This document shows positions 17,502 through 48,783 of a stretch of DNA of 50,340 nt, in pieces (position 1 is the first letter of the stretch; each line of letters opens with the position of its first letter). The stretch is from NCBI GenBank assembly GCA_963840885.1, contig CAWJAN010000003.1, positions 1 to 50,340 on the forward strand, written 5' to 3'. Below the pieces are notes generated by a model. It saw only the letters and a program-made list of their open reading frames with translations, was not told the origin of the DNA and searched no databases. Source of the stretch: an uncultured bacterium (GTDB lineage: Bacteria; Patescibacteriota; Minisyncoccia; Phycocordibacterales; GWA1-40-21). Both the position numbers and the translations under genes were made by a program.

Positions 17502-17503
17502 AT

Positions 17504-17942: not shown

Positions 17943-17946
17943 TGTT

Positions 17947-24307: not shown

Positions 24308-24384
24308 ATTGTTCCATTGTTCGATTGCTCCATTGCTGAAGTAACAATTGAACAATGAGCGTAGCGATAGCAATGAAACAATGG
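24308..24384. repeat. CATTG/CAATG octamer-periodic palindromic element, copy 2
   Basis: attgttcc attgttcg attgctcc attgctga, loop, aacaattg aacaatga [gcgtagcgat] agcaatga aacaatgg. The last unit contains ATG 24381. Confidence 0.9.
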
Positions 24385-25973: not shown

Positions 25974-26047
25974 ACTGAATGCACGAGGTTTATGGTAAAT
26001 CATTACGTAAAATGATGCTAATTCAAGCTTGGAGAAGATTGTTCCAT

Positions 26048-26152
26048 TGCTAACGCTCACTATTGTTCGCTCATTGCTCCATTGTTGTTTTAACAATTGA
26101 ACAATGAAACGAGTCCGACTCGGTGAAACAATTGAACAATTCTTACATTCCA
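26048..26152. repeat. CATTG/CAATG octamer-periodic palindromic element, copy 3
   Basis: The left arm has attgttcc, attgctaa, attgttcg, attgctcc, attgttgt. The right arm is aacaattg aacaatga aac[gagtccgactcg]gtg aaacaattg aacaattc. Confidence 0.9.
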
Positions 26153-27414: not shown

Positions 27415-27500
27415 ATTGTTCCATTGTTCGATTGTTTCATTGTTAAAGCGAAGCATAAAAAATCGCCTAGCAATTGAGCAATGAAGCAATGTAGCAATTG
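27415..27500. repeat. CATTG/CAATG octamer-periodic palindromic element, copy 4 (cleanest)
   Basis: attgttcc attgttcg attgtttc attgttaa, 22-nt spacer, agcaattg agcaatga agcaatgt agcaattg. Confidence 0.9.
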
Positions 27501-28654: not shown

Positions 28655-29787
28655 ATGAGAGTAGGAATTGATGCGAGGTTGTGGGATGAGACGGGGATTG
28701 GGAGATATATTCGGAATTTAGTAAAGTATCTTCAGGAAGTTGATCAAGCGAATGAGTATGTTTTGTTCGTATTAGGTAAAGATTATGGGAATGTCAAAGC
28801 ACTAATTTCTAATAAAAAATGGAAAGTAGTGATAGCTGATGTTCGGTGGCATAGTTTTGCAGAACAGATCAAGCTTTCAGGCATTTTATATAAGGAGAAG
28901 CTTGATCTGATGCACTTTCCCTATTATTCTTACCCCATTTTATATAGCGGAAAGTTTGTTGCCACTATTCATGACCTCATCCTTCTCCATTTTCCCACAG
29001 GAAAAGCGTCGAATTTGCCCCATGTTTTTTATAAAGCAAAACTATTCGCGTATAAATTGCTTACGAGGAACGCGGTGTTGCATGCTCAGCAAATTATTGC
29101 TGTATCAAATGCCACGAAACAGGAAATTGTAGATCACTACCATATTCCTAAAGATAAAATTACCGTAACATACGAAGGGGTAGATGAGCGCATGGATGGA
29201 CAACAGAATAAGCTTGTTGATACTAGATACAAAATACTACATACTAAATACTTTCTTTACGTCGGGAACGCCTATCCTCACAAAAATCTTGAAAGACTTA
29301 TCCAAGCGTTTGGGATATTTAAAAAAGATAATGGTTCAGATGTAAAGCTTATCTTAGTTGGTAAGAATAACTATTTTTATAAGCGGTTGGAGAAAACAAT
29401 TGACGCGTATAGTCTGCGCTCTGATATATTGGTTTTCCACGACGTTAACGATGAAGCGCTTGGGTACTTATATAAAAATGCGATTGCAACGGTTATCCCA
29501 TCGCTGATGGAGGGGTTCGGTCTTCCGGCTCTTGAGGCTATGAGTCAGAAATGCCTGGTAGTCGCGTCTGATATTCCATCAATCCGTGAAATTTGCGGAA
29601 TAACGCGTTATACTTTGACCTAAAAGTGATAAAGGATATTGCCGGCACGCTTTCTATGGTATATAAGAAGAGGAATGATTTTTCGGCACAAAAAACAGAT
29701 GGGGTGAAAAAAACATCTCAATTTTCCTGGAAGAAAATGGCTGCAGAAACAAAACAAGTTTATGAAAGTAGCGTTCGTATACGATAG
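28655..29787 (+). CDS. glycosyltransferase family 1 (GT4); one frameshift near 29600
   Basis: MRVGIDARLWDETGIGRYIRN, FLYVGNAYPHKN, PSLMEGFGLPALEAM. The C-terminus continues as NNALYFDL...SWKKMAAETKQVY (ORF 29593..29787). The first 20 codons of track ORF 28595 are repeat-encoded. Confidence 0.85.
29221..29255 (-). repeat. TACTNNN heptamer tract (5 units, AGTAT family in reverse orientation) inside a CDS
   Basis: tactaga tacaaaa tactaca tactaaa tactttc, translated DTRYKILHTKYF. Confidence 0.85.
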
Positions 29788-30888
29788 AGTGAACAAATGG
29801 GGAGGAGCAGAGAGAGTGCTCCTGTCGCTTCGTGAAATTTTTCCTGACGCACCACTCTATACATCGGTGTACTCTCCAAACTCAGCTCAATGGGCAAACA
29901 AATTCAAAGTAATACCCTCTTTTTTGCAAAAGTTCCCCTTCGCATCCTCACGGCATGAGCTATTTCCTTATCTGATGCCGTTAGCCTTCGAAAGTTTTAA
30001 TTTCGACCAATATGATTTGGTTATTTCTGTTACCAGTGAGGCTGCCATGGGAATTCTGACGAGACCACACACGAAACATATCTGTATATGTTTGACGCCC
30101 ACGAGGTATCTCTGGAGCGGGTATGATGAGTACTTTGCAAATCCTATATTCCGATTCTTCACGAAGCCGATTATCACATATCTCCGAGCTTGGGATCAAA
30201 TAGCTTCGCAGAGGCCGGATGTTTTTGTCTCAATCTCCGGGGAGGTTCAAAAGCGTGTCAAGAAATACTTCAATCGGGATTCGGAATTAATATATCCCGC
30301 AGTAACTCTCGGCGATGGGTTAAAAGCAAGATATCGCAAGAAGCAAGAAGCAAGGCGAGGATAGCGATTATTTTCTCTGTCGTCTCAAGGTTTGTTCCGT
30401 ATAAGAGAATTGATCTAGCCATTCAGGCGTGCAATGAATTGAAGCTTCCGCTGAGAATAATCGGGAATGGGTCTGAGGAAAATCGATTGAGGTCCATGGC
30501 TGGCCCGACGATAGAATTTATAGGCAACTTGACGGATGAGGCCTTAATAAGGTATTATATGGGCTGTAAAGCCCTGCTATTCCCAGGCCATGAGGACCTG
30601 GGTTTGTCTATTATAGAAGTGCAGAAGTTCGGAAGACCGGTGATCGCATACAAAGCCGGTGGAGCATTGGAAACTGTGGTCGATGGAAAAACCGGCTATT
30701 TCTTTACTCCCCAAACAAAGTCTGCGTTGGTTAAGGCACTTAAAATGTTTATTGGACTCAACGGAGGTTTATCGAGAGGCGCTTTTGACAGAAAGTATAA
30801 AAGCGTATGTCAAAAGCAAGCACAAAAGTTTAGTCAAGAGAGTTTTCAAAAAGAAATAAGACAACTGGTCGAAAAAGTAATACAATAA
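29762..30888 (+). CDS. glycosyltransferase family 1; two frameshifts (about 30320 and 30375)
   Basis: MKVAFVYDRVNKWGGAERVL. The DSDYFL segment is readable only in the third frame. Then VSRFVPYKRIDLAIQA...FPGHEDLGLSIIEVQKFGRPVIA. Confidence 0.8.
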
Positions 30889-30892: not shown

Positions 30893-31982
30893 ATGAGAAT
30901 AATAATGTTCGCAGGAGGAGTTGGAAGTAGGCTATGGCCTATTTCCAGAAAAAATTCTCCTAAACAATTCGAGAAAATTATCGGAGACAAATCAATGCTG
31001 CAGATAGCAGTAAGCAAGTTGTTTCCTGATTTTAGCTGGAACGAAGTATATATTTCGACAGGGAAAAAATATCAAAATATGGTTCAATCGCAATTGCCTG
31101 ACTTGCCGGGTGATCATATTATGGTAGAACCTGAAATGCGGGATGTTGGGCCGGCAGTCGGATTGATAGCTGCTCAGTTTGTAAAAATGTGCCCGGATGA
31201 ACCGATTGCGCTTTTGTGGGGAAGTGATCATCTCGTGAGAAATGAAGAGCTGTTTCCGCAAAGCATTGAAAGTTGCAGAGAAGATGATTTTAGAAAACGG
31301 CAAAAAAATTGTCTTTGTAGGCCAAAAGCCCCGATTCGCCAATCAAAATGTCGGATACATTGAATTTGGGTCGGAAATAAAAAAGGTTGACGGGTTACCG
31401 ATCCACGCATTTAAAAGCTTCGAATATCATCCGCATCTATCCCAAGCAGAGCAGTATGTGAAAGATGGGCGGCACGCATGGAATCTGGGATATTTTGTCA
31501 CGACACCACGGTTCCTATGGAAACTATTCTCGGAATTTTCTCCGGTTTTATTTTCTCAACTGTTACAGATAAATAAAGCATTTGGAACACAAGATTTCCA
31601 GAAGGTACTCGATATCATTTATCCGACAGTTGAAAAAATATCCTTTGACAGTGCTGTACTGGAGAAAATGAACCCCAGAGACGGTGAGGTTTTGTCTGTT
31701 GATCTCGGGTGGAGTGATATTGGTGCGTGGGAAGCGTTAAAAGAAGCGTTAGCCAAGAGCGACGAAGAAAATGTGGTCAGAGGGAATGTGCTCGTTGAAG
31801 ACTCTACCGATACACTTATTTTTAACTATAATAAGAGCCAACTGGTAGTAGGTATCGATATGAATGATATGGTAATCGTGAATACAAACGATGTGCTTCT
31901 GATTTGTCCAAAGAACTCCGTTCCAAAAATTAAGGAATTGGTGAAAAGCCTCGAGGGAACAACCAACGATCATTTAGCATAA
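30893..31982 (+). CDS. manC: mannose-1-phosphate guanylyltransferase (ManC/CpsB-like); one frameshift near 31250
   Basis: MFAGGVGSRLWPISRKNSPKQF. ORFs 30893..31363 and 31242..31982 join as DHLVRNEE-FRKALKVAEKM. GYIEFG and DLGWSDIGAW are present. Confidence 0.8.
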
Positions 31983-33121: not shown

Positions 33122-35065
33122 ATGGATGGGTTTAAGAAGATAAGTTTGGGGCAAAATGATTTCGCTCAACAGAAATCACCTCCCTCCAGAAAACCTATGG
33201 CTCGCAAAAAATCACGAAGGAAATTTCTCTATATTGCTTGTGCAATTATTCTCGTTGTTATCCTCTTTACTGTATTCGGAGTGGTACTTCCCGCAAAAGC
33301 CGCGTACTCACATGCTAAATTAGCTATTGCTCAGGCGAAAATTGCGGCAACAGATTTGAAAACGCAGAATATTGCGGCAGCATCAGATGATTTAACGAAG
33401 ACACAGGATGCATTGCTTGTCACCAAAAAGGATGTCGATGGGATGTGGTATATGCAATTTATCCCTATAGCAAATTGGTATTATGGGGATGTATACCATC
33501 TTTTAAATGCCGGAAATTATGGAATTAATGCAGGTCAGATTGCGATTGATGCCGTAAAACCATATGCTGATTTATTAGGTCTCAAAGGTCAGAAGTTTAC
33601 CGGGGGTTCGGCTCAGGATAGAATCCAAACTGCTGTTTTAACAATGGGAAAGATTACCCCTCGAATCAACGATGTTGAAGCACAGCTCGTATTAGTAAAG
33701 AAAGAGATCGATCAGGTTGACCCAAATCATTATCCGTCTCTTTTCGGCGGTGGTAAAATAAAAAGCCAGCTGACGAGCGTTCGGACATACACGGACGAAG
33801 GCGTTGCATTTATTGAGCAAGCGAAGCCATTGATACAAGTTTTGCCATCAGCGCTCGGTGAGCCTACGCAACAGCATTACTTAGTTGTATTCCAAAACGA
33901 TAAAGAACGACGTCCGACGGGTGGATTCCTCACCGCGTATTCTATTTTCAGTGTTAATAAAGGGATAATTCATGTTGATTCCTCAAACGATATTTATACT
34001 TTGGATGATACTATCTCCAATAAGCCAAATGCCCCGAGGCCGATTCTCCAATATCTTCCGAAAGTGTACCAATTGAACCTCCGCGATACGAATCTCTCGC
34101 CAGATTTCGTAACATCCATGGATGCCTTCAATGCGATGTATAAAACTGCTCCGGGATATCAGAAAGTAGATGGAATTATAGCTGTTGATACACAGGCACT
34201 TGTCGCAGCTATGAATATACTTGGAGATATAGATGCGGGTGGTGAAACGTTTACCACCAAAACAGACCCACGATGTAATTGCCCGGAAGTTATTTACTCG
34301 CTGGAATCAACTGCAGACAGGCCGGTAAATTATGTGAGGGGTGATAGAAAAAGCGTTATCGGAGAACTGATGTACGCTATTATGAATAAAGCATTTACGT
34401 CGTCTCCCCGGTTGTATTGGGGGCCTCTTTTCCAGGCGATGATTACCGAGACGACCCAAAAGCATATTCTGTTTGATCTTTATAATACTGATGCGCAAAC
34501 AGGACTTGAGTCGTTGAATGCAAGCGGAAGAATTGCTCAGAATGTAAAAGGTGACTATCTCCACATTAATGAAGCGAATTTCGGAGGAGCGAAGTCGAAT
34601 ATGTATGTCAGTGAAGCAGTTGACCAAAAGTATGACGTCGCGAGTGATGGTACCATCACAAAGACAGTTACTGTGCATTATAAAAATCCGTTTCCACCAT
34701 CCGACTGTAATTTGGAACATGGAAATCTTTGTCTCAATGCGCCATTACGAAATTGGGTTCGCGTCTATGTACCGCAGGGAAGCCAACTCGTTACTAGCAG
34801 CGGCTCTCAGGTAAAAGTCACGTCATATGATGAATTGGGTAAAACTGTTTTTGAAGGATTCCTTATTATTAATCCTCTCGGTACTGCGACATATACCGTA
34901 GCATATAAATTGCCGTTTAAGCTGGCAGATAATTCCCCATTGCCTCTTCTTATCCAGAAACAGCCTGGCGTAGATAGCCAGGATACCACCATATCTGTCG
35001 GAAGCAATCAGCTGGATTCATTTTCCCTGGCGTCAGATAAGCAGTTGATGCTGCAGCTTAAGTAA
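33122..35065 (+). CDS. DUF4012-domain envelope protein
   Basis: N-terminal TM helix, then HYLVVFQNDKERRPTGGFLTAYS, typical of DUF4012. Track ORF 33101 starts at a TTG that overlaps the -10 box. Confidence 0.75.
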   Translation: MDGFKKISLGQNDFAQQKSPPSRKPMARKKSRRKFLYIACAIILVVILFTVFGVVLPAKAAYSHAKLAIAQAKIAATDLKTQNIAAASDDLTKTQDALLVTKKDVDGMWYMQFIPIANWYYGDVYHLLNAGNYGINAGQIAIDAVKPYADLLGLKGQKFTGGSAQDRIQTAVLTMGKITPRINDVEAQLVLVKKEIDQVDPNHYPSLFGGGKIKSQLTSVRTYTDEGVAFIEQAKPLIQVLPSALGEPTQQHYLVVFQNDKERRPTGGFLTAYSIFSVNKGIIHVDSSNDIYTLDDTISNKPNAPRPILQYLPKVYQLNLRDTNLSPDFVTSMDAFNAMYKTAPGYQKVDGIIAVDTQALVAAMNILGDIDAGGETFTTKTDPRCNCPEVIYSLESTADRPVNYVRGDRKSVIGELMYAIMNKAFTSSPRLYWGPLFQAMITETTQKHILFDLYNTDAQTGLESLNASGRIAQNVKGDYLHINEANFGGAKSNMYVSEAVDQKYDVASDGTITKTVTVHYKNPFPPSDCNLEHGNLCLNAPLRNWVRVYVPQGSQLVTSSGSQVKVTSYDELGKTVFEGFLIINPLGTATYTVAYKLPFKLADNSPLPLLIQKQPGVDSQDTTISVGSNQLDSFSLASDKQLMLQLK

Positions 35066-35189
35066 ATACTCAAATAATACTAATACTCAAATACCCAAAG
35101 ATTTACTCAAGAATACCCAAATGAAATCAGCAGACCACTCGTTCATTAGTGTATTTGTATATTAGATTATTTGGATATTAGTATATTAT

Positions 35190-35778: not shown

Positions 35779-36062
35779 ATGAAGCAAAGTGAACGTTCTA
35801 CTCAATCAGCGAAAAGGAATGAAGCAAAACCGGGAAAATACTGTGGATGTTATGGATTCCATCAGCCCTCGTTTTAGTGTTTTCAGTAGCACTTTTCATC
35901 TTCGCTACTAGTCAGCCAAATAATCCTGCTGGAGCGAAATCCGCGATGATCGTCGCGACTATACTTGCCCTAGTATTCGTTTTAAGCTTAGTTATAAATT
36001 CGATCTTGCAAGCCAGGAGAATAAACAGCGGTAAAATCAGTATAGAATACCATGGCATCTAG
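35779..36062 (+). CDS. small membrane protein (one frameshift near 35838)
   Basis: AAGGAG lies 7 nt upstream of ATG 35779 (MKQSERSTQSAKRNEAKPGK). The frame changes at GGGAAAATAC into ORF 35847..36062, which has two TM helices. Confidence 0.5.
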
Positions 36063-36066
36063 GTAA

Positions 36067-36091
36067 GAGGTGATATGTTACATATCACCTC
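36067..36091 (+). terminator. perfect 11-bp hairpin after the small membrane protein gene
   Basis: gaggtgatatg tta catatcacctc, starting 5 nt after the stop. There is no U tract. Confidence 0.45.
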
Positions 36092-36110
36092 ATATTGCAT
36101 ACACAAAATA

Positions 36111-36139
36111 TTGACATATGATTATATGTATGGTATTTT
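36111..36139 (+). promoter_or_regulatory. promoter candidate for the glyQS leader (TTGACA-N14-TGgTATTTT extended -10)
   Basis: TTGACA at 36111-36116 and TGGTATTTT at 36131-36139. Confidence 0.5.
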
Positions 36140-36145
36140 AAATAG

Positions 36146-36280
36146 AATTTGCGATGAAGAGGTTGACCTGCGAGCTAGAAAAAGAGTCCTCCTCTGGAAC
36201 GGAAATGAGGGTGGAACCGCGGGTTTAAAACGACTCGTCCCTGTTGATTATTTGTTAATCGATAGAGACGAGTTTTTTTG
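36146..36280 (+). promoter_or_regulatory. T-box riboswitch leader (glycine-type) with terminator/antiterminator
   Basis: GAGGGTGGAACCGCGGG (about 36207-36223) matches the T-box core AGGGUGGNACCGCG. A GCGATGA GA-motif sits at the 5' end (36150-36156). The terminator ACTCGTC...GACGAGT plus T7 lies at 36233-36279, and its 5' strand (CCCT) competes with AGGG of the T-box. Confidence 0.8.
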
Positions 36281-36292
36281 TTGAAAAAAATT

Positions 36293-37606
36293 ATGGATAA
36301 TTTGATGGAGAAAATTACAGCATTAGCGAAGCGGAGGGGATTTATTTATCCCGGCTCCGAGATTTATGGCGGACTGGCCGGAACATGGGATTATGGTCCA
36401 TTGGGCACTGAACTCAAGCGCAACATCAAAAATATCTGGTGGAAGAACGTGGTTCTTGAACGCGATGACATGGTTGGAATCGATGCCGCAATCATGATGA
36501 ATCCCCGCGCCTGGGAAGCATCAGGTCATGTCGAGGCATTCACAGATCCTCTTGTCGAATGTAAAATTTGTCATTTGCGGTTTCGATCGGATAAACCTGA
36601 CGAAATAAAGCAGCATGTTCAGACCCATAAAGGACAGGTTGTCGAATGGACAGAGCCTCAGCAATTCAACCTTTTAGTTAAGGCCTACTTAGGTGTTCTA
36701 GAGGGGAAACAAGCAGAGTTATATTTGCGTGGCGAAATTACAAATGGTGTCCACGTCAATTTTAAAAACGTGGTAAGTTCTTCCAGAGTCAAGATTCCCT
36801 TTGGTATTGCTCAAATCGGAAAAGCATTCAGGAACGAGATTACTCCGGGGAACTTTGTTTTCAGATCCAGAGAATTTGAGCAAATGGAAACTCAGTTTTA
36901 TGTTAAACCGGTAGACATAGAAGGTAAAAAGTGGTTTGAGTATTGGAAGCAAAACCGACTTGAATGGTTCCTCTCTCTCGGCATCCGAAAAGAAAATATC
37001 CGTTTTAGAGATCATGCAGATGACGAACGGGCGCATTATGCGCGAGCAGCAACAGATTTGGAGTACAACGCTCCATGGGGTTGGCAAGAATTTATGGGAA
37101 TTCATCACAGGGGTGATTGGGATTTAACCAGGCACCAAAAGTATAGCGGAAAGCCTATGACATATAATGATCCGGAATCTGGAGAAGAATATATACCGTG
37201 GGATATTGAGACATCTGCCGGGGTTGATAGATCATTATTATTCTTTTTGGTGGATGCATATAATGAAGAGGGAAAGCGTATCGTTTTAAAACTCCATCCA
37301 AAACTGGCACCGGTTAAGGCGGCGGTATTTCCCTTGTTAGCCAACAAACCGGAATTAACGAAAGTCGCGGAAAAAGTATATCGGGATTTGAAAAAGAATA
37401 TCGATGGTGTGGTAGCCTGGGATGACCGGGGAAATATCGGAAAGCGATATTTATCGCAGGATGAGATAGGAACGCCATATTGTATTACCATTGATTTCCA
37501 GACACTGGAAGATCAAACTGTCACACTGAGAGACCGGGATACTACCAAGCAGGAACGGGTAAAAATTGAAGACCTTCTTACTCTACTTCAGAAGAAACTA
37601 CAGTAA
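36293..37606 (+). CDS. glyQS: glycine--tRNA ligase (dimeric class II GlyRS)
   Basis: MEKITALAKRRGFIYPGSEIYGGLAGTWDYGPLG, FRNEITPGNFVFRSREFEQME, YIPWDIETSAGVDR. Start is at ATG 36293, because track TTG 36278 lies inside the terminator U tract. Confidence 0.9.
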   Translation: MDNLMEKITALAKRRGFIYPGSEIYGGLAGTWDYGPLGTELKRNIKNIWWKNVVLERDDMVGIDAAIMMNPRAWEASGHVEAFTDPLVECKICHLRFRSDKPDEIKQHVQTHKGQVVEWTEPQQFNLLVKAYLGVLEGKQAELYLRGEITNGVHVNFKNVVSSSRVKIPFGIAQIGKAFRNEITPGNFVFRSREFEQMETQFYVKPVDIEGKKWFEYWKQNRLEWFLSLGIRKENIRFRDHADDERAHYARAATDLEYNAPWGWQEFMGIHHRGDWDLTRHQKYSGKPMTYNDPESGEEYIPWDIETSAGVDRSLLFFLVDAYNEEGKRIVLKLHPKLAPVKAAVFPLLANKPELTKVAEKVYRDLKKNIDGVVAWDDRGNIGKRYLSQDEIGTPYCITIDFQTLEDQTVTLRDRDTTKQERVKIEDLLTLLQKKLQ

Positions 37607-37618
37607 GGCCCTTCTACA

Positions 37619-37784
37619 GGCCGGAAAGGATTTGCAATCCTTTCTGTATGTTTTGTAAATCGCACAAATGTCATTTCAGTAAACTTTGTGCCACGTTCAC
37701 TGACAATACTAAACTCGTGTAATGCATTCATATTTGGTGGATATTACAAAACGTTTCGGAATGGTTTACAAAACCATTCCGGCT
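37619..37784 (+). repeat. double-hairpin intergenic element (family B), long copy
   Basis: Hairpin 1 is gaaaggat-ttgca-atcctttc (37624-37644). A conserved gtaaatcgcacaa..tcatttcag core follows. Then AACGTTTCGG and hairpin 2, cggaatggttt-aca-aaaccattccg (37757-37781). Confidence 0.85.
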
Positions 37785-37839
37785 ACTGGACAGCTAAGAA
37801 GGGAAGTTTACTAACTCCTGTTTATGCTATACTCCGATC

Positions 37840-38608: not shown

Positions 38609-38644
38609 TGTTGATATGCTAATCTAAGATAGGCTATTCCCCGG

Positions 38645-38774
38645 GCCGGAAAGGATTTGTAATCCTTTCTGTATAGTTAGTAAATCGCATAACATATCAT
38701 TTCAGCAAAGTTTCGGAATGGTTTGCACCACAAGGGCACTAACTTCGCGGAAGTGTCGCAAAACCATTCCGGCT
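38645..38774 (+). repeat. double-hairpin intergenic element (family B), second copy, same orientation
   Basis: gccggaaaggatttgtaatcctttctgtat..gtaaatcgcataa..tcatttcag ... gtttcggaatggttt[46-nt expanded loop]aaaccattccggct. Confidence 0.85.
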
Positions 38775-38827
38775 TCAGAATCCTTTGGCTCTTCTGGTAC
38801 ATTTGGTACCTTCGGCTCGTACTATAT

Positions 38828-38863: not shown

Positions 38864-39364
38864 ATGTTTAAAAACAAAATCCTTATTACAGTCGTGGCAG
38901 TCGCTGTAGCGCTCATCGTTGTCGCGGGCGGCGGTTTCTATATTCTCTCAAAGAATTCATCACAATCTGCAGCTCCAACTCCGGGACCCGAAGCTCAGCA
39001 GCAAATTTTGACTATGAATCCTGAAGATATTGGGATGAAATTGTCACAAGTGACCTATACGAAAAAAAGTCCTCCAGGGCCAGCACTTCGTCTCGAAATA
39101 ACCAAATTAGATGGTATTAAATCTATAGACTGTGAGATTCACTACAGCCATGCTACCGATACGGGAGATCGCACGACCGAAGGCTTGCTCTGCAATATCG
39201 ATATCAAACCTGGAACATCAAGTATAACCCAGGATTTTCCTTATGCGACCTGTTCGGATGTATGCCACTACCAAAAAGATATAAAAGGAGTAGAAGCCAT
39301 AGTAAAAGTTACCAAATCTGACGGAAAAATCTACCAGATAGACCAGAAACTCGCAGATCAGTAG
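38864..39364 (+). CDS. hypothetical membrane-anchored or secreted protein
   Basis: Intact 166-aa ORF with an N-terminal TM/signal segment ILITVVAVAVALIVVAGGGFYIL. Confidence 0.55.
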   Translation: MFKNKILITVVAVAVALIVVAGGGFYILSKNSSQSAAPTPGPEAQQQILTMNPEDIGMKLSQVTYTKKSPPGPALRLEITKLDGIKSIDCEIHYSHATDTGDRTTEGLLCNIDIKPGTSSITQDFPYATCSDVCHYQKDIKGVEAIVKVTKSDGKIYQIDQKLADQ

Positions 39365-39441
39365 TTTCTAGAATTCTTCCTTTTTCTTCACCTCTTAGAT
39401 TTTCCCTATTCCTTTTTGCATTAAGATAGCATAGTATAATT

Positions 39442-39681
39442 TTGTCGTCCGACGTAATTACTAATATAGAAAGGGATATCGTGAAATTATTATGCGTCGA
39501 CATACTTTGCTTAAATGGTCAACCAGCAGAGGGGGTGCAGATAATAGTTCCGTCTGACTTATCTTCTGAGGAAGAGCATTCTTTTATAACTTTAGAAATT
39601 CAACGATTAAACACGAGATTAACTTCTCGTGGTCAATGCGTTGGAAAGTCTACTACCAAGATCGTAGAGGATCTTCTATAG
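39442..39681 (+). CDS. hypothetical small protein (start uncertain)
   Basis: ORF with TTG/GTG starts only, followed directly by a strong intrinsic terminator. No recognisable motif. Confidence 0.3.
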   Translation: MSSDVITNIERDIVKLLCVDILCLNGQPAEGVQIIVPSDLSSEEEHSFITLEIQRLNTRLTSRGQCVGKSTTKIVEDLL

Positions 39682-39711
39682 GGATCATGTTCCACACATG
39701 ATCCCTTTTTC
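39681..39711 (+). terminator. rho-independent terminator
   Basis: gggatcatg ttccaca catgatccc followed by ttttt. Confidence 0.8.
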
Positions 39712-39726
39712 TTACTATTTTCTTTC

Positions 39727-39756
39727 TTGACAGAGCATGAAAATTGTACTTAAATA
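39727..39756 (+). promoter_or_regulatory. dcw promoter candidate (TTGACA-N17/18-TTAAAT/TAAATA)
   Basis: TTGACA at 39727-39732 and an AT-rich -10 at 39750-39756, about 70 nt upstream of mraZ. Confidence 0.5.
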
Positions 39757-39760
39757 GAAT

Positions 39761-39790
39761 AAGTAGTACAAAGTAGGAAAAAGTAGGAAA
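39761..39790 (+). promoter_or_regulatory. three direct AAGTAG boxes at exact 10-nt spacing: candidate MraZ operator
   Basis: aagtagtaca aagtaggaaa aagtaggaaa (39761, 39771, 39781), between the promoter candidate and mraZ. Confidence 0.6.
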
Positions 39791-39817
39791 TTCTCTTGTT
39801 CTGCCTGCAAGAGAATT
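39789..39817 (+). promoter_or_regulatory. 10-bp hairpin in the mraZ 5' leader
   Basis: aattctcttg ttctgcctg caagagaatt, ending 9 nt before ATG 39826. Confidence 0.5.
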
Positions 39818-39825
39818 AATAATCT

Positions 39826-40260
39826 ATGCTTTTAGGACGATCTGAAGGAAAAATAAGCACCAAATTTCAGGCGGCGTTCCCAAAACGATTTAGGGAAGAT
39901 ACCGGTGATATTTTAATCGTAACGAAAGGACTGGAAAGCTGTCTTATTATCGTGTCTGAGGAAAACTGGAAAACGCTCCTGGAGGGAACTGAAGGAAGAC
40001 CTTTTACAAATAAAGCAACCCGGGAGTTACAGCGTTTTCTTTTGGGAAATGCTGAACGAGTTGAGCTCGATTCAAAAGGACGGTTTGTTATTCCTGAATA
40101 TTTACGGAAGCACGCGGGCATAACAGATGAAGTGATTTTTGCAGGACTTGAGAGGTTTGTGGAAGTGTGGGATAAGGATCAATGGGATAAGCATCAGAAA
40201 GTACTTTCCGACAATATCGCCTCGATCGCGGAAAGGTTAGGTGAGATTGAAGGGAAATGA
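39826..40260 (+). CDS. mraZ: transcriptional regulator MraZ
   Basis: Two SpoVT/AbrB-like halves: ISTKFQAAFPKRFRE and LDSKGRFVIPEYLRKHAGI. It is first in the dcw order. Confidence 0.9.
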   Translation: MLLGRSEGKISTKFQAAFPKRFREDTGDILIVTKGLESCLIIVSEENWKTLLEGTEGRPFTNKATRELQRFLLGNAERVELDSKGRFVIPEYLRKHAGITDEVIFAGLERFVEVWDKDQWDKHQKVLSDNIASIAERLGEIEGK

Positions 40261-41151
40261 CCGAGTTCCATACAAGTGTACTTTTACAGGAAGCAATTGC
40301 AAGTCTGAATATTTCAGAAGGGAAGCGATATATTGATGCCACGCTTGGAGGAGGAGGGCACACGAGGGCGATCCTTGAGAAGGGTGGTCAAGTGTTGGGG
40401 ATTGACCAAGATGAGGAAGCGATTGAACATGTTCGGGTAGAATTCAAAATTCAAAATTCAAAATTCAAAGTTGGTAAAGAATTAATTTTGATGTATGGAA
40501 ACTTTAAAGATATAAGAGAGATCGCAGAGAAAAATGGATTTGGAAAAGTGGATGGGATTCTGTTTGACATTGGTATTTCCAGTCATCATGTCGATACGCC
40601 GGAGAGAGGATTTAGTTTTCAGACAGATGCACCGCTGGACATGAGGATGGATAGAAGTCTAGGTGTTACTGCAGCAGACTTGATAAATGGGTTGTGGAGA
40701 GAAGAATTAATCTCGTTATTTATGAAGCTGGGGGAAGAGTATCGTGCGAAAAAAAATAACGGAAGCAATAATACGCGCGAGAGAAGTTAAGCAAATTGAA
40801 ACGACAAAGGAATTAGCTACGATCATTGAAAAAGCTGTTGGGGGACACGGGGTAGGAATACATCCTGCGACGAAAGTGTTTCAGGCATTAAGGATTGCTG
40901 TGAACGATGAATTGAACAGCTTAGAAGAGGGATTAAGCGGTGCAATTGATCTTTTACAGTCAAAGGGAAGGATCGTAGTTATATCATTTCACTCTCTGGA
41001 AGATAGGATTGTGAAGAATGCATTCTTAGAATTTGAAAATAAAGGGTTAGGAATAATTCTTACCAAGAAGCCTATGGTACCAAGCGGTGACGAACAGAAG
41101 CGAAACAAAAGAAGCAGAAGTGCGAAGATGAGAATTTTTGAGAGAGGGTAA
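40257..41151 (+). CDS. rsmH: 16S rRNA (cytosine1402-N4)-methyltransferase RsmH; one frameshift at A8 run 40749-40756
   Basis: HTSVLLQEAI, DATLGGGGHT, FDIGISSHHVD, ERGFSF, then after the A run KITEAIIRAR...ATKVFQALRIAVNDEL...ISFHSLEDRIVK. Confidence 0.9.
40441..40468 (+). repeat. AATTCAA heptamer tract (4 exact units) inside rsmH
   Basis: aattcaa x4, translated EFKIQNSKFK, in the variable linker between the SAM-binding GID motif and the YGNF strand. Confidence 0.9.
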
Positions 41152-41290
41152 AGCGTTAAGGGTAAAGGGAAAAGTGAAATGTTTAAGGTCTAATTTCTAA
41201 TGCCTAAAGAAAACTACAGTGGCAAAGTTTATTAGATTTTAAAGCATTTGACATTTTATTAGAAATTAGGAATTAGACATTTGGCATTAC
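41145..41290. repeat. intergenic spacer built from 7-nt periodic degenerate repeats in inverted arrangement
   Basis: agggtaa agcgtta agggtaa agggaaa agtgaaa tgtttaa ggtctaa tttctaa tgcctaa (41145-41207), then ttagaaa ttaggaa ttagaca tttggca (41259-41286). Confidence 0.85.
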
Positions 41291-41320
41291 TGTGGAGGAC
41301 ATTATAGATTAAGTTATTAT

Positions 41321-41608
41321 ATGAATAGAACAAAGATTTTTTTTGCATTGTTATTTGGTATCGTGGCTTTGTCGGCTGTTATTCAGGTATCGGCCTCAAA
41401 TTTTCTGTCGACTGATGGAATAGATTTGGCTCAAGTTCAAAACAGAATCGAAGCGTTAAAAAAAGAAAATATTCTTTTGAAACAAAAGATTTATGCCAGT
41501 GCTTCCTTGACAGAAATCGCGTCTGAAGCTGCGACTCTTGGATTTATTCCAAGTAATGACACCGTGTTTATCGATACCTCCTCGCAGCCCATCGCTATTA
41601 AACCATGA
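41321..41608 (+). CDS. ftsL: FtsL-like cell division protein
   Basis: 95 aa, single N-terminal TM helix, coiled-coil segment NRIEALKKENILLKQKI. It lies between rsmH and ftsI, and its stop overlaps the ftsI start. Confidence 0.7.
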   Translation: MNRTKIFFALLFGIVALSAVIQVSASNFLSTDGIDLAQVQNRIEALKKENILLKQKIYASASLTEIASEAATLGFIPSNDTVFIDTSSQPIAIKP

Positions 41609-43293
41609 CATGGCGTTACCACCTTATTCTGCTTTTCTTCGGTCTGGCATTCATGGCTATCACAGCAAAGCTCTTCTGGTGGCAGGTCGTAAAAGCTGAA
41701 GAGCTTTCAGATCTAGGTCAGGCACAGTACTCAAAAAATCTCCAAATAGAACCCATTCGGGGTGACATAAAAGCATCAGACGATTTTCCTCTCGCGACAA
41801 ATAAGCTATCATATCTTGTTTTCGCGAATCCGAAAGAAATTGGCGATAAAGAAGATACTGCAAATAAATTGGCACCCATTCTGGGCATGGACAGCGCGAC
41901 TATAAGCGGGAAGTTGACTCAAGATAAATTTTGGGTTCCGATAAAACCGAGTATCGATGAAGATACCAGAAAGACAATTGATGCGCTCCGTATACCTGGT
42001 GTTGGTTTTCAGGAGGAATATGGCAGGCTTTATACTGAAGCGTCAACAGCTGCACAACTTCTTGGATTTGTTGGTAAGGATACATTCGGAAATGATAAAG
42101 GGTATTTTGGCTTAGAAGGGTATTACGATAGGCAATTACGTGGCAGAGCAGGACAGGCAGTTATCATTAACGATGCATTTGGGCGTCCTGTTTTATCGAA
42201 ATTTGATGGTAGTTCCGGAGAGTTAGACGGCCGGTCATTTCTGACGCTCCATATTGATCGTGCTATCCAGTTCCTCGTTGAATCGAAATTAAAGGCAGGA
42301 ATTAATAAATACGGTGCTGAAAGCGGTATGGCTGCGGTCATGGACCCGGCAACCGGGGGTATACTGGCTATGTCGGCATTTCCATCATTTGATCCGAGAA
42401 GCTATGGAAATTACGATGTTTCACTGTATAAAAATCCCTTTATCACGGATACGTACGAACCAGGATCTACGTTTAAGCCTCTTGTTATGGCGGCAGGAAT
42501 GGAGTCTCATCTCATTACACCTACTTCGACCTGTCCTGTTTGCGGGGGTCCGGTTTCAAGTCGGAGGATACGATATCCATACTTGGAATGATCAGTATTT
42601 TGCTAACACCGATATGACGCACATCATGATTGACTCCAGACAATACCGGTATGGTGTATATTGCCCAAAGATTAGGCCTGGATCGTATGTTGTCGTATCT
42701 GGGTAAATATGGGATAGGAGATTCGACGGGGATAGATTTAGAAGGTGAGTTGGCACCGGGATTAAAACGCAACCGGATTGGTATCCGATTGATCTGGCGA
42801 CCGCGGGATTCGGGTCAGGGAATTTCTGTCACCCCCATAGAGCTTCTGGACGCATTTGCTACTATCGCGAATAAGGGTCAGCGTATGGAACCTCATGTCG
42901 TGTCGGAGATTACCACTCCTGATGGTCAGCAGATAACTATCCCGCCGAAAGTACTGGACCAGCCAATTGCTGAAGGAACTGCGAAAGTCATGACTGAAAT
43001 CTTAGTTCACGCAGTCGATGAGGGAGAGGCGAAGTTTGCCAGACTGGCAAAGGATATCGAATAGCCGGAAAGACCGGTACAGCGTCAATTCCACTGAACG
43101 GACATTATGATCCACGAAAACGATTGCTTCATTTATCGGATTCGCTCCAGCCGATAATCCAAAGTTTATTATGTTGGTTATCTTAAACAAGCCCACTGCT
43201 TCAATTTATGGCGCCGAAACCGCTGCGCCCATATTCTTCGACATCGCGAAAAACTTGCTGGTCTATTATGGAATTCCACCGAGTGGAGATTAA
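41605..43293 (+). CDS. ftsI: class B penicillin-binding protein (FtsI/PBP2-type transpeptidase); at least five frameshifts
   Basis: N-terminal TM helix and dimerisation domain, then STFKP (SxxK). SDN is readable after a shift near 42640, GFGQGISVTP after a compensated pair at about 42770/42815, and AGKTGTA after a shift near 43055. The C-terminus YYGIPPSGD ends at 43291-43293. Confidence 0.85.
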
Positions 43294-43297
43294 TGTC

Positions 43298-43702
43298 TGT
43301 CATTCCGGCTTGTCCGGAATCTCATCGACTTACACGAGGATTGATGGATTGAGTTGGTGGTAAAGATCCTTGAAGGTTGGATTCATCAGTTGATATGAGT
43401 TCTAACTTTATCTTTTCGTGACATATTTTTGATTTGTTTCTCTCTGATGATTGCTTGTGATGATCCTTCTATTGCCTCGTAATATATTAAGTTGTGTAGG
43501 TTATATTTCTGAGTAAATCCCTTTATAATCTCCAAGCTTGTGTTCTTGGAGTTCTTCGAAGTAGCATTATTCGTGACACCAGTGTATAAACGGGGTTGTT
43601 GCTCTTGTTACCCATAATGTAGACAAACATGTACTTGCTAGTCATACCGATTCAATTTACAGTCTACCAGATTGAAGAGATTCCGGACAAGCCGGAATGA
43701 CA
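43298..43702. mobile_element. 405-bp element with perfect 26-bp terminal inverted repeats enclosing a degenerate GIY-YIG nuclease gene
   Basis: TGTCATTCCGGCTTGTCCGGAATCTC at 43298-43323 is the exact reverse complement of 43677-43702. Each arm is itself a hairpin. Confidence 0.8.
43387..43645 (-). pseudogene. GIY-YIG (COG2827/URI-type) nuclease gene, spread over three frames
   Basis: The minus strand reads MTSKYMFVYIMGNKSNN, then YTGVTNN, LLRRT, EHK, and KGFTQKYNLHNLIYYEAIEGSSQAIIREKQIKNMSRKDK in different frames. Confidence 0.7.
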
Positions 43703-43707
43703 TATCA

Positions 43708-44320: not shown

Positions 44321-44464
44321 AGTAGCATCATAAATGTTTTTCTCACTCGGCGCAATCGGCAAACTGGACAAAGTCCGAATCTTATAGTACAATACTTTCG
44401 TGCTCGTGTCTTGTGATTGTTTGCAGACGCGAGCATATTTTGGTTTACGTTTCACTGTCTGTAG

Positions 44465-44526
44465 CCGGAGCACATTTGCAATGTGCTACGAAACGTTTCG
44501 GACCAGGTTGCAAACCTGCTCCGGCC
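44465..44526 (+). repeat. double-hairpin intergenic element (family B), minimal copy
   Basis: ccgg agcacat-ttgca-atgtgct acgAAACGTTTCGG accaggtt-gca-aacctgct CCGGcc. It has the same loops and linker as 37619-37784, with different stem sequences. Confidence 0.8.
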
Positions 44527-44548
44527 TCGATCGTGATATAATAATTTT

Positions 44549-45779
44549 ATGTGGCAGAAGACGAAGAATATCTATCATTTATTCGTAGCTGTCCTCGCAA
44601 ATGTCGTGTATCGTTTTCCCGGCCGTAAACTTACTGTTATCGGCGTTACAGGGACCGATGGAAAAACCACTACTGTCAATCTCATTTATCATATACTCAA
44701 ATCTGCAGGAAAATCCGTATCCATGATTTCCACAGTTGGAGCAAGTATTCATGGAGAGATTTATATCCTCTGTGGATTTTCACGCTCACAATCACCCTGA
44801 TTCATTCTTCATTGCAGAAAGTTTTTATCGAAAGCAGTAAAGGGGAGGAGAAAGCAAAGAGAACTTCATCTTGTTCTCGAAGTCTCCTCTCACGGGGCTT
44901 GATCAATATAAGCCATGGGGTATTCCATTTAAAGTCGGGGGTTATAACGAATATTACTAACGAGCATTTGGCATTATCATAAGACATATGATAATTATCT
45001 TCTCATGCGAAAGCAAAACTTCTCAAGAAAGCAAAGATCTGGGCACTCTTCTCAATAAGGATGATGGAGCTTTCGAAAAGCTGCAGCGAACACTTACACA
45101 TCAGAAACTGGTTACGTATGGCATTCGCTCGGCTGTTGATGTTTCTCCGAAATCGTTTCCGTTTACATCCCGTCTGCCCGGCGAATTTAATACATACAAT
45201 ATGCTTGCCGCAATCGCAGTTTGTACATCTCTTGGTATTTCCAATGAAAAAATAAAAGACGGGTTAGCTTCGTTTACGCTACCCTTAGGCAGGATGAACA
45301 TGATAAAAAACGGGATGGGAATGGATATATTTGTCGACTATGCACACACCCCAAATGCTCTCACTCAAGCATTAACGACGCTCAATTCGATGAGGAAGAA
45401 AAACTCAAAAATAATTTCGATCATCGGAGCGGAAGGGTATAGAGATATCAAGAAACGTCCAAAGTTGGGAGAAATTGCCATGTCCCTTTCTGATAGAGTT
45501 ATTATTACATCGGTCGATCCGCGGGGACTGATGGATGAGATAAATAAGGCTATTTTAACTGGTGCTAAAAAGGCAGGAGGAGAATTGGGAAAAAACGTAT
45601 TTATTGAACCTGATAGACAAAAGGCAATCGATATGGCAATACACACGTTAGGTAAAAAAGGCGATATTATTGGGATCTTCGGAAAAGGCCACGAGAGGTC
45701 AATGAATATGGATGGCAAGCACGAGCTCCCATGGAGTGACTATGAAGCAGTGGAAACAGCGTTAAGAGCGAGGGCATAG
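44549..45779 (+). CDS. murE: UDP-N-acetylmuramoyl-tripeptide synthetase MurE; dense frameshift cluster at 44770-45045
   Basis: VIGVTGTDGKTTT. VLEVSSHG, LDQYKPWGIPFKVG, VITNITNEHL and AKAKLLKKAK are each readable in a different frame. ORF 44988..45779 follows (DYAHTPNAL, IIGAEGYRD). Confidence 0.8.
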
Positions 45780-47174: not shown

Positions 47175-47233
47175 AACAATTGAACAATGAAGCAATGGAG
47201 CCACGTAGAACGTGGCAAGCAATGAAACAATTC
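47175..47233 (+). repeat. CAATG octamer module (right-arm type only) with central mini-hairpin, copy 5
   Basis: aacaattg aacaatga agcaatgg a[gccacgtagaacgtggc]a agcaatga aacaattc, 56 nt upstream of murC. Confidence 0.9.
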
Positions 47234-47288: not shown

Positions 47289-48704
47289 ATGAAAATAAAG
47301 AACGTACATTTTTTCGGAATTAAAGGGGTCGGTATGACGCCTTTGGCGATTATCGCAAAAGAGGCAGGGTTTCATGTGACCGGTTGTGATATAAAAGATG
47401 AATTCATAACGGATGCCGCTTTGCGGGAGGTCGGGATTAATCCTGCTGAAGGATTTTCTCCTAAGCACGTTGAAGATATAGATTTGCTTATCGCCACTGG
47501 CGCGCATAAGGGATTTGAAAACCCGGAGGTTCAGGCAGCTGTCGAAAAGAATATCCCGTTCTTTATGCAAGGTGAAGCCGTTGGGGCATTTATGGAGGGG
47601 AAAATCTTTAATAGGAAGCTAAAAGGGATATCGGTCGCGGGATGTCACGGAAAAACCACGACGACTGCTATGCTGGCAACAATCTTTTCTGAGGCAGGGC
47701 TTGATCCTTCATATATTGTAGGGACAAGTGATATGCGGCCATTGGGATTGCCGGGACATTACGGGAAAGGTGAATATTTCATCGCAGAAGCGGATGAGTA
47801 CGCGACTGAACCGAACGAATTAAAAACTCCGAAATTCCTTTGGCAGTATCCGAAATACGCAATTATTACAAATGTAGAATTTGACCATCCGGATGTCTAT
47901 GGATCCATCGAAGAAGTACGAGATGCGTATCTCTTTTTCGCAGCGAATGTCGGAAAGGATGGGGCACTTATCGTAAATGGCGATGATGACGAGACGACGA
48001 AAGCATTAGAAGGGTATAAGCGGAAGAGAATCAGTTTCGGTAAGAAGCCCGATAATGATTATGTTTTACAGAAGGTTTCTGTGTCTGACGGTCAGACGAT
48101 CTTTTTCGCGGCGTCACGATACAAAGATTTGGGGAAGTTTGTCCTAAATGTATTTGGAGAACACAATGCCCTTAATGCGCTTGCCGCAGCGATTGTTGCG
48201 CTCGAAGCAGACGTTCCGATTGATGACATTAAAAAAGGACTTTTTCTGTTTGGCGGGACGAGGCGTCGCATGGAATTTGTCGGAAAAACGCCCCATGGCG
48301 CAGTTATCTATGATGACTATGCACATCATCCTACGGAAATCCGGAAAACACTCTCCGGTCTTAAGAATCAGTTTCCTGATAAGAAAATTCTTACGATTTT
48401 TCAGCCTCATACCTATTCACGAACAAAATTATTGTTTGATCAATTTTCTACTGCATTTGAAGATATTGACGAAGCAATAGTAACTGAAATCTTTCCATCT
48501 GCTCGTGAGGAATTTGATGGATCGGTATCTTCGAATGGCTTAGTTGAAGCTATGAATACACACAAAAATAATGCTCATTTTTTGAGAAGTTTTGATGATG
48601 TGATACAATACCTCAGTGAAAAAAAGCCCGGTCCCAACTGGATAATCGTCACCATGGGCGCTGGCGATATATATAGAGTTGGAGATCGGCTATTAGAAGG
48701 GTGA
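47289..48704 (+). CDS. murC: UDP-N-acetylmuramate--L-alanine ligase
   Basis: VHFFGIKGVGMTPLA, VAGCHGKTTTTAM, NVEFDHPD, DDYAHHPTEI. Intact 471 aa. Confidence 0.9.
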   Translation: MKIKNVHFFGIKGVGMTPLAIIAKEAGFHVTGCDIKDEFITDAALREVGINPAEGFSPKHVEDIDLLIATGAHKGFENPEVQAAVEKNIPFFMQGEAVGAFMEGKIFNRKLKGISVAGCHGKTTTTAMLATIFSEAGLDPSYIVGTSDMRPLGLPGHYGKGEYFIAEADEYATEPNELKTPKFLWQYPKYAIITNVEFDHPDVYGSIEEVRDAYLFFAANVGKDGALIVNGDDDETTKALEGYKRKRISFGKKPDNDYVLQKVSVSDGQTIFFAASRYKDLGKFVLNVFGEHNALNALAAAIVALEADVPIDDIKKGLFLFGGTRRRMEFVGKTPHGAVIYDDYAHHPTEIRKTLSGLKNQFPDKKILTIFQPHTYSRTKLLFDQFSTAFEDIDEAIVTEIFPSAREEFDGSVSSNGLVEAMNTHKNNAHFLRSFDDVIQYLSEKKPGPNWIIVTMGAGDIYRVGDRLLEG

Positions 48705-48783
48705 AGGGTAAAGGGGGAAGCGTAAAGTGCAAGCTGCGGCTTTATTCTTAACGCTATACCCTTAACGCTAAACGCTTATTTTT
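48704..48783. repeat. intergenic spacer of 7-nt periodic repeats (AAGGGTA family) in inverted arrangement
   Basis: aagggta aaggggg aagcgta aagtgca, then taacgct ataccct taacgct aaacgct. It shares the 13-mer AGCGTTAAGGGTA (reverse orientation, 48757-48769) with 41152-41164. Confidence 0.85.

Follow-up and report, generated by a model that had tools for sequence, protein, structure and literature searches.

The window analysed here is a stretch of 50,340 nucleotides from an uncultured bacterium (GenBank contig CAWJAN010000003.1, positions 1 to 50,340 of the forward strand, the strand on which its arrays and hairpins are described below), and the element in question is the 169-nt spacer between rsmH, which stops at a TAA (41149–41151), and ftsL, which starts at an ATG (41321). 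This spacer was interpreted, with moderate confidence, as an inserted palindromic element without a gene, belonging to a class of elements whose arms consist of four to five degenerate units of 7 nt or, in some cases, 8 nt. Arrays of this build also flank genes of the PF05635 family, annotated as '23S rRNA intervening-sequence protein' (IVP), and the gene-less spacer was assigned to this IVP-linked class by inference. The link between PF05635 genes and heptamer arrays, which extends from the Candidate Phyla Radiation (CPR) to cyanobacteria, appears to be unreported and is the most interesting outcome of the analysis.

A preliminary description of this DNA had held that most of the spacer is made up of degenerate units with a 7-nt period, set out as inverted arms, and the sequence was as described. 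Nine heptamers stand back to back at 41145–41207, followed by a 51-nt gap (41208–41258) and by the words TTAGAAA, TTAGGAA, TTAGACA and TTTGGCA at 41259–41286. The nine units are contiguous as claimed, although eight rather than nine conform to the proposed pattern NNNNWAA, since AGCGTTA ends in TTA. The inverted-arm design holds for the last four units (TGTTTAA, GGTCTAA, TTTCTAA and TGCCTAA, an NNNCTAA array at 41180–41207 that reads as TTAG-N3 words on the other strand), these being the sole portion of the run complementary to 41259–41286. It does not hold for the run as a whole, which consists of two arrays in one register. The first of these (AGGGTAA, AGCGTTA, AGGGTAA, AGGGAAA and AGTGAAA, 41145–41179) is a solo array of AAGGGTA type that includes the rsmH stop codon and is unpaired; no complement of it was found within the spacer, while its word family recurs at 48696–48727. 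Tandem Repeats Finder returned two rows for the spacer (41158–41179 and 41258–41281).

The paired arrays were predicted to form an interrupted stem-loop at 41174–41285, with 10 bp between 41177–41186 and 41273–41282 and 14 bp between 41189–41202 and 41257–41270. The 51-nt interior did not resemble the PF05635 gene, and nothing in Rfam matched it above threshold. In a repeat search, the arms (41177–41201 and 41258–41282) were 84% complementary over 25 nt. The fold of the trimmed hairpin (41174–41292) had a minimum free energy (MFE) of -28.6 kcal/mol (z = -3.75 against dinucleotide shuffles); the sense strand of the whole 186-nt spacer gave z = -1.2 only, because the flanks dilute the hairpin signal. 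An alternative pairing joined 41178–41212 to 41254–41288, displaced by exactly 7 nt, and therefore the remark that the arms can pair in several registers was correct. The rotation of TAA through the reading frames was likewise borne out, with copies at 41149, 41157, 41163, 41184, 41191, 41198 and 41205 closing all three frames within ~50 nt.

That the spacer is a derived insertion had escaped the preliminary description. By its MraZ homologues the window belongs to Patescibacteria (CPR), and by the genomes matched it belongs to Levybacteria (Microgenomates), with which the relevant comparison was made. The closest of these, L001, has the same gene order as the window and an MraZ that is 82% identical, the nearest among 5.8 billion proteins; a metagenome scan with FtsL produced no closer relative. 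In eight genomes (L002, L005, L007, L009, L010, L012, L013 and L014), rsmH and ftsL share 4 nt (ATGA), and only five genomes had a spacer: 169 nt in the window, with two heptamer arrays and hairpin arms; 142 nt in L001, with heptamer arms built of other words (AAATCTC AAATCTC AAAGACA ... TTTGAGATTTTATCTTTGATTT); 60 nt in L004, with a period-8 array; and 42 nt in L008 and 71 nt in L018, with different G+C-rich repeats. Since most relatives have the overlap, the window spacer was interpreted as a derived insertion and the ATGA overlap as the ancestral condition in Levybacteria. Several of the Levybacteria-like records (L004–L007, L010, L012 and L013) carry 'uncultured Gammaproteobacteria' titles that look mislabelled, and are listed beside L019 (Sungiibacteriota) and L020 (Oscillospiraceae).

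Other junctions showed the same behaviour. In L001, a gene-less octamer hairpin of CAATG type extends exactly from the mraZ TGA to the rsmH ATG, a junction that is an ATGA overlap in the window, and the DUF4012–recO junction holds arrays in both the window (35064–35188) and L004, with different words. The expectation of conservation among related genomes was therefore upheld, in that arrays of the same kind occupy the same junctions, and certain words (AATTTCA, AGTAT, CAATG and AACGCT) reappear at unrelated loci and in relatives. Between near-identical strains, no array indels were found alongside 45 and 13 substitutions (L021/L023, 99.2% identical, and L024/L025, 99.6% identical; a small sample), and by this absence a hypermutable contingency locus was not supported.

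A gene-carrying element occupies 17502–17942, between two glycosyltransferase genes. Its open reading frame (ORF; 17537–17908) matched PF05635 in Pfam (E = 3e-35), with a weaker bAvd-like match. Between the upstream stop codon and the IVP ATG, 35 nt are occupied by five AGTATWW units (17502–17536), and the 35 nt that follow the IVP stop are their inverse complement at 32 of 35 positions (five ATACTAA units, 17908–17942), the array ending 4 nt before the next ATG. The inverted repeat scored 55, compared with 19.5 +/- 4.2 in shuffles. These arrays had been listed previously, but not as the two ends of a single gene cassette of 441 nt. The 3' array has the TTAG-N3 frame in common with the arms of the rsmH–ftsL spacer. 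A PF05635 cassette is also found at the corresponding junction of L021, between an ORF comprising only the N-domain of a family 4 glycosyltransferase (GT4) and a full-length GT4 gene (window 16932–19062, L021 2443–4525; IVP 65% identical), and the insertion there is therefore old and stably inherited.

Contigs with IVP homologues supplied five further independent CPR contexts, in which arrays of [AT]GTA[TG] type abut the ATG and the complement usually lies past the stop codon. These were the glycosyltransferase junction just mentioned in L021, another Levybacterium; thyA–IVP–folA in both L024 and L032 (Saccharimonadales); def–IVP–fmt in L030; and TraG–IVP–M23 in L031 (Gottesmanbacterium). Identity at period 7 in the 35 nt upstream of the CPR IVP start codons was 0.57–0.79, compared with 0.04–0.40 at other periods. 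L001 carries a decayed IVP copy with AATTACG arrays on either side.

A tblastn search of plasmids showed that IVP homologues there were almost exclusively cyanobacterial. Nostoc edaphicum has GTAGGGA x8 before the gene and TCCCTAC x5 after it, and Calothrix has GTAGGGT x4 and TACACCC x4 in the same positions. In N. punctiforme, TCAGGAG x5 abuts the ATG and CTTCTGA-type units lie past the stop codon; in Nostoc ATCC 53789, GGGAAAA-type arrays stand on both sides; and in Pseudanabaena, AAAGCTA x17 accompanies an IVP gene situated between cas6 and cas4; IVP genes lying between cas genes have been noted before (PMC3936711). The sample comprised 15 IVP loci (140 kb, CPR and cyanobacterial plasmids), chosen by similarity to one protein. 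Within it, 26 of 69 period-7 arrays lay no more than 70 nt from the start or stop of an IVP gene, a region amounting to 1.6% of the sequence (binomial P ~8e-29), and at least one flanking heptamer array was present at 14 of the 15 loci.

The array, the IVP gene and the second array constitute one insertion unit, which exactly occupies the gap that separates a stop codon from the following start. In syntenic plasmid operons of Nostoc, empty sites read TAG-GTT-ATG or TAA-TTT-ATG, while filled sites consist of the stop codon, an array, the IVP gene, the inverted array and the ATG; therefore, the arrays come in together with the gene, and the target site does not itself possess them. L041 (4962–5383) and L042 (4949–5455) carry unrelated PF05635 cassettes at adjacent junctions of the same Nostoc operon (39% identical proteins, different words), which is direct evidence for independent insertions. 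The words themselves were found to co-vary with IVP lineage across host orders and phyla. TCAGRAG characterises L036, L039 and L041, whose proteins are 80–98% identical; ACTTCAA and CTGCCYT are shared by L038 and L043 (Nostoc and Stanieria, 79%), AAAGCTA by L044 and L040 (72%), and [AT]GTA[TG] by the CPR IVPs (61–76%). Because the words travel with IVP lineages, the 7-nt period was regarded as a heritable property of the element family.

The frequency of such arrays in the window was evaluated by defining an array segment by an identity of 76% or more in 21 comparisons at lag p, with dinucleotide shuffles as the background. Period 7 gave 11 segments where 0.07 were expected, and period 8 gave seven against 0.1, an enrichment of ~100-fold over shuffles; the remaining periods (3–6 and 9–13) gave 0–1 segments each, with ~0.1 expected, and the sole period-10 segment was the AGTAG x3 MraZ box array upstream of mraZ. 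The excess, which had been proposed as a check, persisted when intergenic DNA alone was shuffled (32 segments, 36.5% G+C), with six segments against 0.04 for period 7 and seven against 0.00 for period 8. Non-coding sequence, which makes up 13.9% of the window, contained 14 of the 18 arrays, and many arrays began in or just past a stop codon or finished 2–9 nt ahead of a start codon. They were short (4–5 units) and of near-constant length (28–35 nt), and their units combined a fixed core with variable positions (TTAG/NNN, AGTAT/WW and ATTGYT/NN). Recurrences of the build with other words, previously listed at 16522, 17504, 17908, 19794 and 48704, and the 8-nt version in the CAATG elements were all detected by Tandem Repeats Finder.

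With respect to known systems, the window cassette shares its layout with the PF05635/S23p intervening sequences in the rRNA of Leptospira and Coxiella burnetii, which are ~430–445 nt long and have an ORF of ~120 codons and inverted repeats of ~28–35 nt. The Coxiella sequence is a selfish element of 428 nt with a PF05635 ORF, whose terminal inverted repeats make up a stem of 28 bp within which RNase III cuts (PMC4990558). Terminal inverted repeats forming a stem of ~20–35 bp were found in both the spacer (10 + 14 bp) and the cassette (32/35). However, unlike rRNA intervening sequences, both elements are located between protein-coding cistrons and not in helix 25 or 45 of 23S rRNA, their arms are composed of 7-nt units, and the rsmH–ftsL element consists of arms and a 51-nt interior without an ORF. 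Rfam identified no rRNA in the window.

The arrays also belong with the heptanucleotide repeats that are a recognised class in bacteria, including cyanobacterial short tandemly repeated repetitive (STRR) sequences, Xanthomonas GGGAATC repeats (some in inverted pairs) and the TAACTGA repeats beside start codons in Beggiatoaceae and cyanobacteria (PMC4679880, PMC4692102); these two papers describe heptanucleotides as the most over-represented long class of simple-sequence repeat in many bacteria. The resemblance lies in head-to-tail 7-nt units, a strongly intergenic distribution, frequent positions directly upstream of start codons, occasional inverted pairs, and sequence and length that differ among relatives at conserved positions. 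Unlike those repeats, the window arrays are short (4–5 units) and degenerate, fall into several word families per genome with an additional 8-nt family, typically form the two arms of a hairpin occupying the whole gap from stop to start, and occur in a CPR host. A copy excess and an intergenic bias were found, as in heptanucleotide repeats generally, while variation in unit number between close strains was not found in a small sample. The two papers make no mention of an association with PF05635 genes, and the literature search found no paper linking PF05635 to heptamer repeats or describing such repeats in CPR.

The claim that the spacer corresponds to no standard signal was thus upheld in part: it is not a terminator, a repetitive extragenic palindromic (REP) sequence, an iteron or a CRISPR, and matches no Rfam family, but the organisation is known from heptanucleotide repeats and PF05635 intervening sequences. 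A CRISPR array was excluded as the units are 7–8 nt and contiguous, rather than repeats of 24–48 nt with spacers. Iterons were excluded as the 7-nt units form inverted arms at many operon junctions, rather than direct repeats of ~17–22 bp; the cumulative GC skew of the window climbs monotonically, without a turning point. An MraZ operator was excluded for the spacer, which has period 7 and lies downstream of rsmH, the MraZ signal being separate (39757–39790, period 10). An intrinsic terminator was excluded as the stem is A+T-rich and no T run follows it (41150–41320). At the gathering threshold, Rfam 15 produced no match in the window, and no tRNA or tmRNA was found there; when the spacer was searched by E-value, only plant miRNA-precursor models appeared, at 20–21 bits against thresholds of 90–140.

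Miniature inverted-repeat transposable elements (MITEs), REP sequences and their paired form (REPIN), and Rickettsia palindromic elements are short gene-less hairpin insertions at gene junctions, and some copies of the Rickettsia elements lie in frame inside genes. The elements described here are similar in that presence differs between relatives (the rsmH–ftsL junction is filled in 5 and overlapping in 8) and in that some window copies lie in frame in tolerant gene loops, as in Rickettsia. They differ from MITEs and REPINs in having no common full-length consensus, unrelated loops, shared unit words alone, and internally periodic arms.

Under the proposed mechanism, the element would have landed in the ancestral ATGA junction of rsmH and ftsL in the lineage of the window, and the spacer would be transcribed with the division and cell wall (dcw) operon. 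The TAA-rich units would terminate rsmH in whichever frame a ribosome arrives, and the two arms would pair to give an interrupted stem of ~24 bp in the dcw transcript. The element may be tolerated because its units close all frames after rsmH and its transcript folds back on itself. The stem might be cut by RNase III, as in PF05635 rRNA intervening sequences, and by this analogy such processing is probable; alternatively, it might serve as a compact structured spacer between cistrons. The 7-nt period may mean that the array is recognised unit by unit by a multimeric protein, PF05635 relatives being pentamers, or it may mean that the array has grown by replication slippage. PDB entry 2GSC, a PF05635 relative, has five chains and is the subject of a paper titled '...five four-helix bundles', while the Avd accessory protein found in diversity-generating retroelements forms a pentamer with a positive charge (PMC6182149).

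Several observations weigh against the interpretation of the spacer as an inserted element of this class. The base of the stem lies 23 nt past the rsmH stop and 36 nt ahead of the ftsL start, and not at the codons. The spacer lacks a PF05635 gene, and its 51-nt loop shows no similarity to the IVP gene; hence, the connection between spacer and cassette is one of build and a shared 4-nt core, and not of homology. This lack of similarity speaks neither for nor against the spacer as a decayed PF05635 cassette. Loops of different copies are unrelated to each other, which is unlike the behaviour of a classical MITE, and no recombinase, transposase or REP-associated tyrosine transposase (RAYT) was found among the ORFs of the 50-kb window scanned against Pfam. 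No clear target-site duplication was seen where filled and empty sites were compared (Nostoc; the mraZ–rsmH junction of L001). Alignment of the spacers of the window, L001 and L004 detected no homology, so that one old insertion and repeated independent insertions are indistinguishable. Among ten elements, neither fold stability nor G-U content consistently favoured one strand, five folding better in sense and four in antisense, with one equivocal (47170); selection for a sense-strand RNA stem is therefore not demonstrated. Solo arrays and in-frame coding arrays are not explained by hairpin function, and weaken a reading in terms of RNA alone. Finally, the IVP sample was small (15 loci) and was selected by similarity to one protein.

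Host post-transcriptional control was considered as an explanation in which the arrays would bind a multimeric RNA-binding protein, one word per subunit, and so tune the translation of ftsL and other downstream genes. Candidate models are TRAP on (G/U)AG repeats and HutP on UAG-N4 repeats, where each subunit of a ring-shaped homo-oligomer reads one copy of a short word repeated at fixed spacing; the UAG-N4 site has a 7-nt period, as does TTAG-N3 here, and the WAG-N4 pattern recalls it. Control sites would account for the arrays that finish 2–9 nt before a start codon and for those flanking IVP genes, which always abut the ATG, as well as for the conserved cores with variable positions and for the conservation of position at orthologous junctions while words change; a Shine-Dalgarno motif is not visible upstream of the window genes. 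MacGregor proposed binding of ribosomal protein S1 or a Csp protein to TAACTGA repeats (PMC4679880), which was counted in favour of control. However, a single coding strand carries the same words in both orientations, which would produce different RNA sequences, and several unrelated word families coexist in one genome, unlike the sites of TRAP and HutP. The 3' arm of the spacer ends 33 nt before the ftsL ATG, and the junction was ancestrally a spacerless ATGA overlap, such that regulation is not ancestral. The only candidate identified for a ring of this type was the PF05635 pentamer itself, and host control was judged unlikely. Neutral simple-sequence repeats, that is, heptamers born of slippage, accumulating under weak selection, inverted by template switching and without function, would be in keeping with the rank of heptanucleotides as the most over-represented long class in many bacteria, and with the suggestion of Mrazek in 2007, as reported in PMC4679880 and PMC4692102, that heptamers reflect a polymerase footprint or slippage. 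The turnover of words between relatives while position persists, the absence of strand asymmetry, and the stop-free words of gene-internal arrays in loops and linkers point the same way. Against this, arrays had no indels between strains that are 99.2–99.6% identical (45 and 13 substitutions), while a dinucleotide repeat varies between L002 and L003; arrays are short (4–5 units) and near-constant at 28–35 nt; and the same words are found at unrelated loci and in relatives. Furthermore, arrays come with the IVP gene as a unit and are missing from empty sites, their words follow IVP lineage across host orders, and slippage alone cannot make matched inverted arms. A neutral origin was considered distinctly unlikely.

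A transcription signal, whether an intrinsic terminator or attenuator following rsmH or a promoter inside the spacer driving ftsL and the dcw genes beyond it, was suggested by the long hairpin directly past the stop codon and by a weak sigma-70-like match (TTGGCA-18-TAGATT, 41281–41310). However, the stem is A+T-rich, the sequence past its 3' arm (...GGCATTACTGTGGAGG) lacks a U tract, and a terminator scan (39300–41700) was negative in the spacer; promoter-like matches were at the level of chance (5, compared with 5.4 in shuffles), and the ancestral overlap of rsmH and ftsL argues for co-transcription, making this explanation very improbable. DNA recombination sites are an extremely improbable reading, in which inverted arrays would be crossover points for inversion or excision by a site-specific recombinase. 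Inverted arrays of the same family do occur kilobases apart (AGTATWW at 16522, 17502 and 19795 against 17908 and 29220; AAGGGTA at 41145 against its complement at 48747), and folding without strand asymmetry is consistent with a DNA site. Yet the 50-kb window has all its genes on one strand, in an order shared with L001 and L021, no recombinase gene was present among the window ORFs scanned against Pfam, and no inverted variants were found among near-identical strains.

Beyond the rsmH–ftsL spacer, a wider proposal is doubtful as it stands: that heptamer arrays, including STRR-type repeats of heterocystous cyanobacteria and the CPR arrays, are the cis-acting ends of widespread, unrecognised small mobile cassettes built around a pentameric PF05635 four-helix-bundle protein, with each unit read by one subunit of the ring, and that gene-less hairpins are non-autonomous derivatives which are moved, or processed or regulated, in trans. 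Knowledge of bacterial heptanucleotide repeats goes back to 1990, and cyanobacteria, Bacteroidota and CPR contain PF05635 four-helix-bundle proteins in great abundance; to our knowledge, the proteins have no known function, and the origin and role of the repeats are unexplained. If the link holds genome-wide, it would provide a testable origin for heptamer repeats, would suggest a candidate nucleic-acid ligand for an Avd-related family of pentameric proteins, and would explain the insertion tolerance of tightly packed CPR operons (dcw, thyA–folA and def–fmt). In annotation, such spacers and the in-frame heptamer loops of rsmH and glycosyltransferases should be treated as insertions, and not as host regulatory signals.

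Elsewhere in the window, a hairpin fills the Mur ligase–murA spacer (48696–48778), where an AAGGGTA-type array lies over the TGA stop and its TAACGCT/TACCCTT complement ends 6 nt before the ATG. The DUF4012–recO spacer is filled from stop to start by a period-8 hairpin (AAATACTC... / ATTAGTAT...; 35064–35188). Period-8 elements of CAATG type comprise hairpins at 19102–19186 (ATTGYTNN x4, loop, NNARCAAT x4), 26040–26140 (composite) and 27415–27498 (MFE -30.1 kcal/mol, z = -4.97), and a solo array 8 nt upstream of a start codon (24308–24335); at 47177–47230, CAATG-type units surround a small G+C-rich hairpin. Solo AGTATWW arrays begin inside the stop codon of the upstream glycosyltransferase gene (16522–16548) and 8 nt past a stop codon (19795–19828).

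Certain arrays are located within coding sequence. A perfect AATTCAA x4.1 array occupies a variable surface loop of rsmH (40441–40469), and a perfect AATTTCA x4.4 array is in frame in a PMT_2 gene, where it encodes ..SNFKFQISN... (24923–24953). An AATTTCA-type array in frame in the GT4 N-domain gene (17072–17101) corresponds to an insertion of 4–5 residues relative to the L021 orthologue, while a GT4 glycosyltransferase gene has an in-frame ATACTAA-type array in its interdomain linker (29220–29252). The AATTTCA/AATTCAA arrays of the GT4 N-domain, PMT_2 and rsmH genes are ~30 nt long and stop-free, encode (NFKFQIS)n-like peptides, and recall the in-frame palindromic elements of Rickettsia. In rsmH, the internal array of four units follows the S-adenosylmethionine-binding GxGGH motif, in a variable loop and mostly ~185–200 nt from the start codon. 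Besides the window, such arrays were identified in L001 (4113–4141), L002 (6661–6690), L004 (10598–10641), L006 (10760–10796), L008 (2608–2649), L009 (1384–1419), L013 (3149–3190), L014 (5694–5724), L015 (753–795) and L016 (2831–2874). Their words are wholly different among genomes (AATTCAA, AATTTCA, GCGTCTA, GAATTAA, GGAGARC and others), and several are perfect, though selection at the protein level cannot maintain a 7-nt unit. Several conserved genes, including rsmH and the gene for a penicillin-binding protein (PBP), are split into overlapping ORFs in the window (40744–40790, 42591–42630, 7578–8587, 29762–30888 and 30893–31982), whether through indel errors of the assembly or because they are genuine pseudogenes. 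The break in rsmH lies ~300 nt downstream of its heptamer array, and the two are therefore not linked.

Approximately 40 nt upstream of mraZ, three AGTAG words at 10-nt spacing (39757–39790) are presumably the MraZ operator; (A/G)GT(A/G)G x3 is kept at this position in L001, L005, L007, L008, L010, L012 and L014–L017. Also upstream of mraZ, in L002 and L003, a reverse-transcriptase/Avd pair (a diversity-generating retroelement) adjoins a (TC)n tract (L002 5863–5917, L003 5291–5350) whose length differs though the assemblies are 99.8% identical. On the minus strand at 43293–43706, a small frameshifted GIY-YIG gene (COG2827-like) lies between inverted TGTCATTCCGGC-N-GCCGGAATGACA hairpins, at the junction of the PBP and tRNA-binding-protein genes where L001 has its decayed PF05635 cassette. 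A second pair of TGTCATTCCGGC-N-GCCGGAATGACA hairpins (16556–16580 and 16683–16709) occurs in the 409-nt spacer after the array at 16522. Another intergenic palindromic family is represented by three copies of a two-hairpin repeat (CGGAAAGGATTTGCAATCCTTTCTG ... CGGAATGGTTTACAAAACCATTCCG) at 37607–37800, 38630–38800 and 44440–44550. Lastly, a divergent T-box leader was recognised at 36061–36245, upstream of the glycyl-tRNA synthetase gene (36278–37606); it scored 33.2 bits (E = 6e-6), well short of the Rfam gathering score of 93, but its GGGTGGAACCGCGGG box can be recognised, as can a terminator hairpin with a T run.

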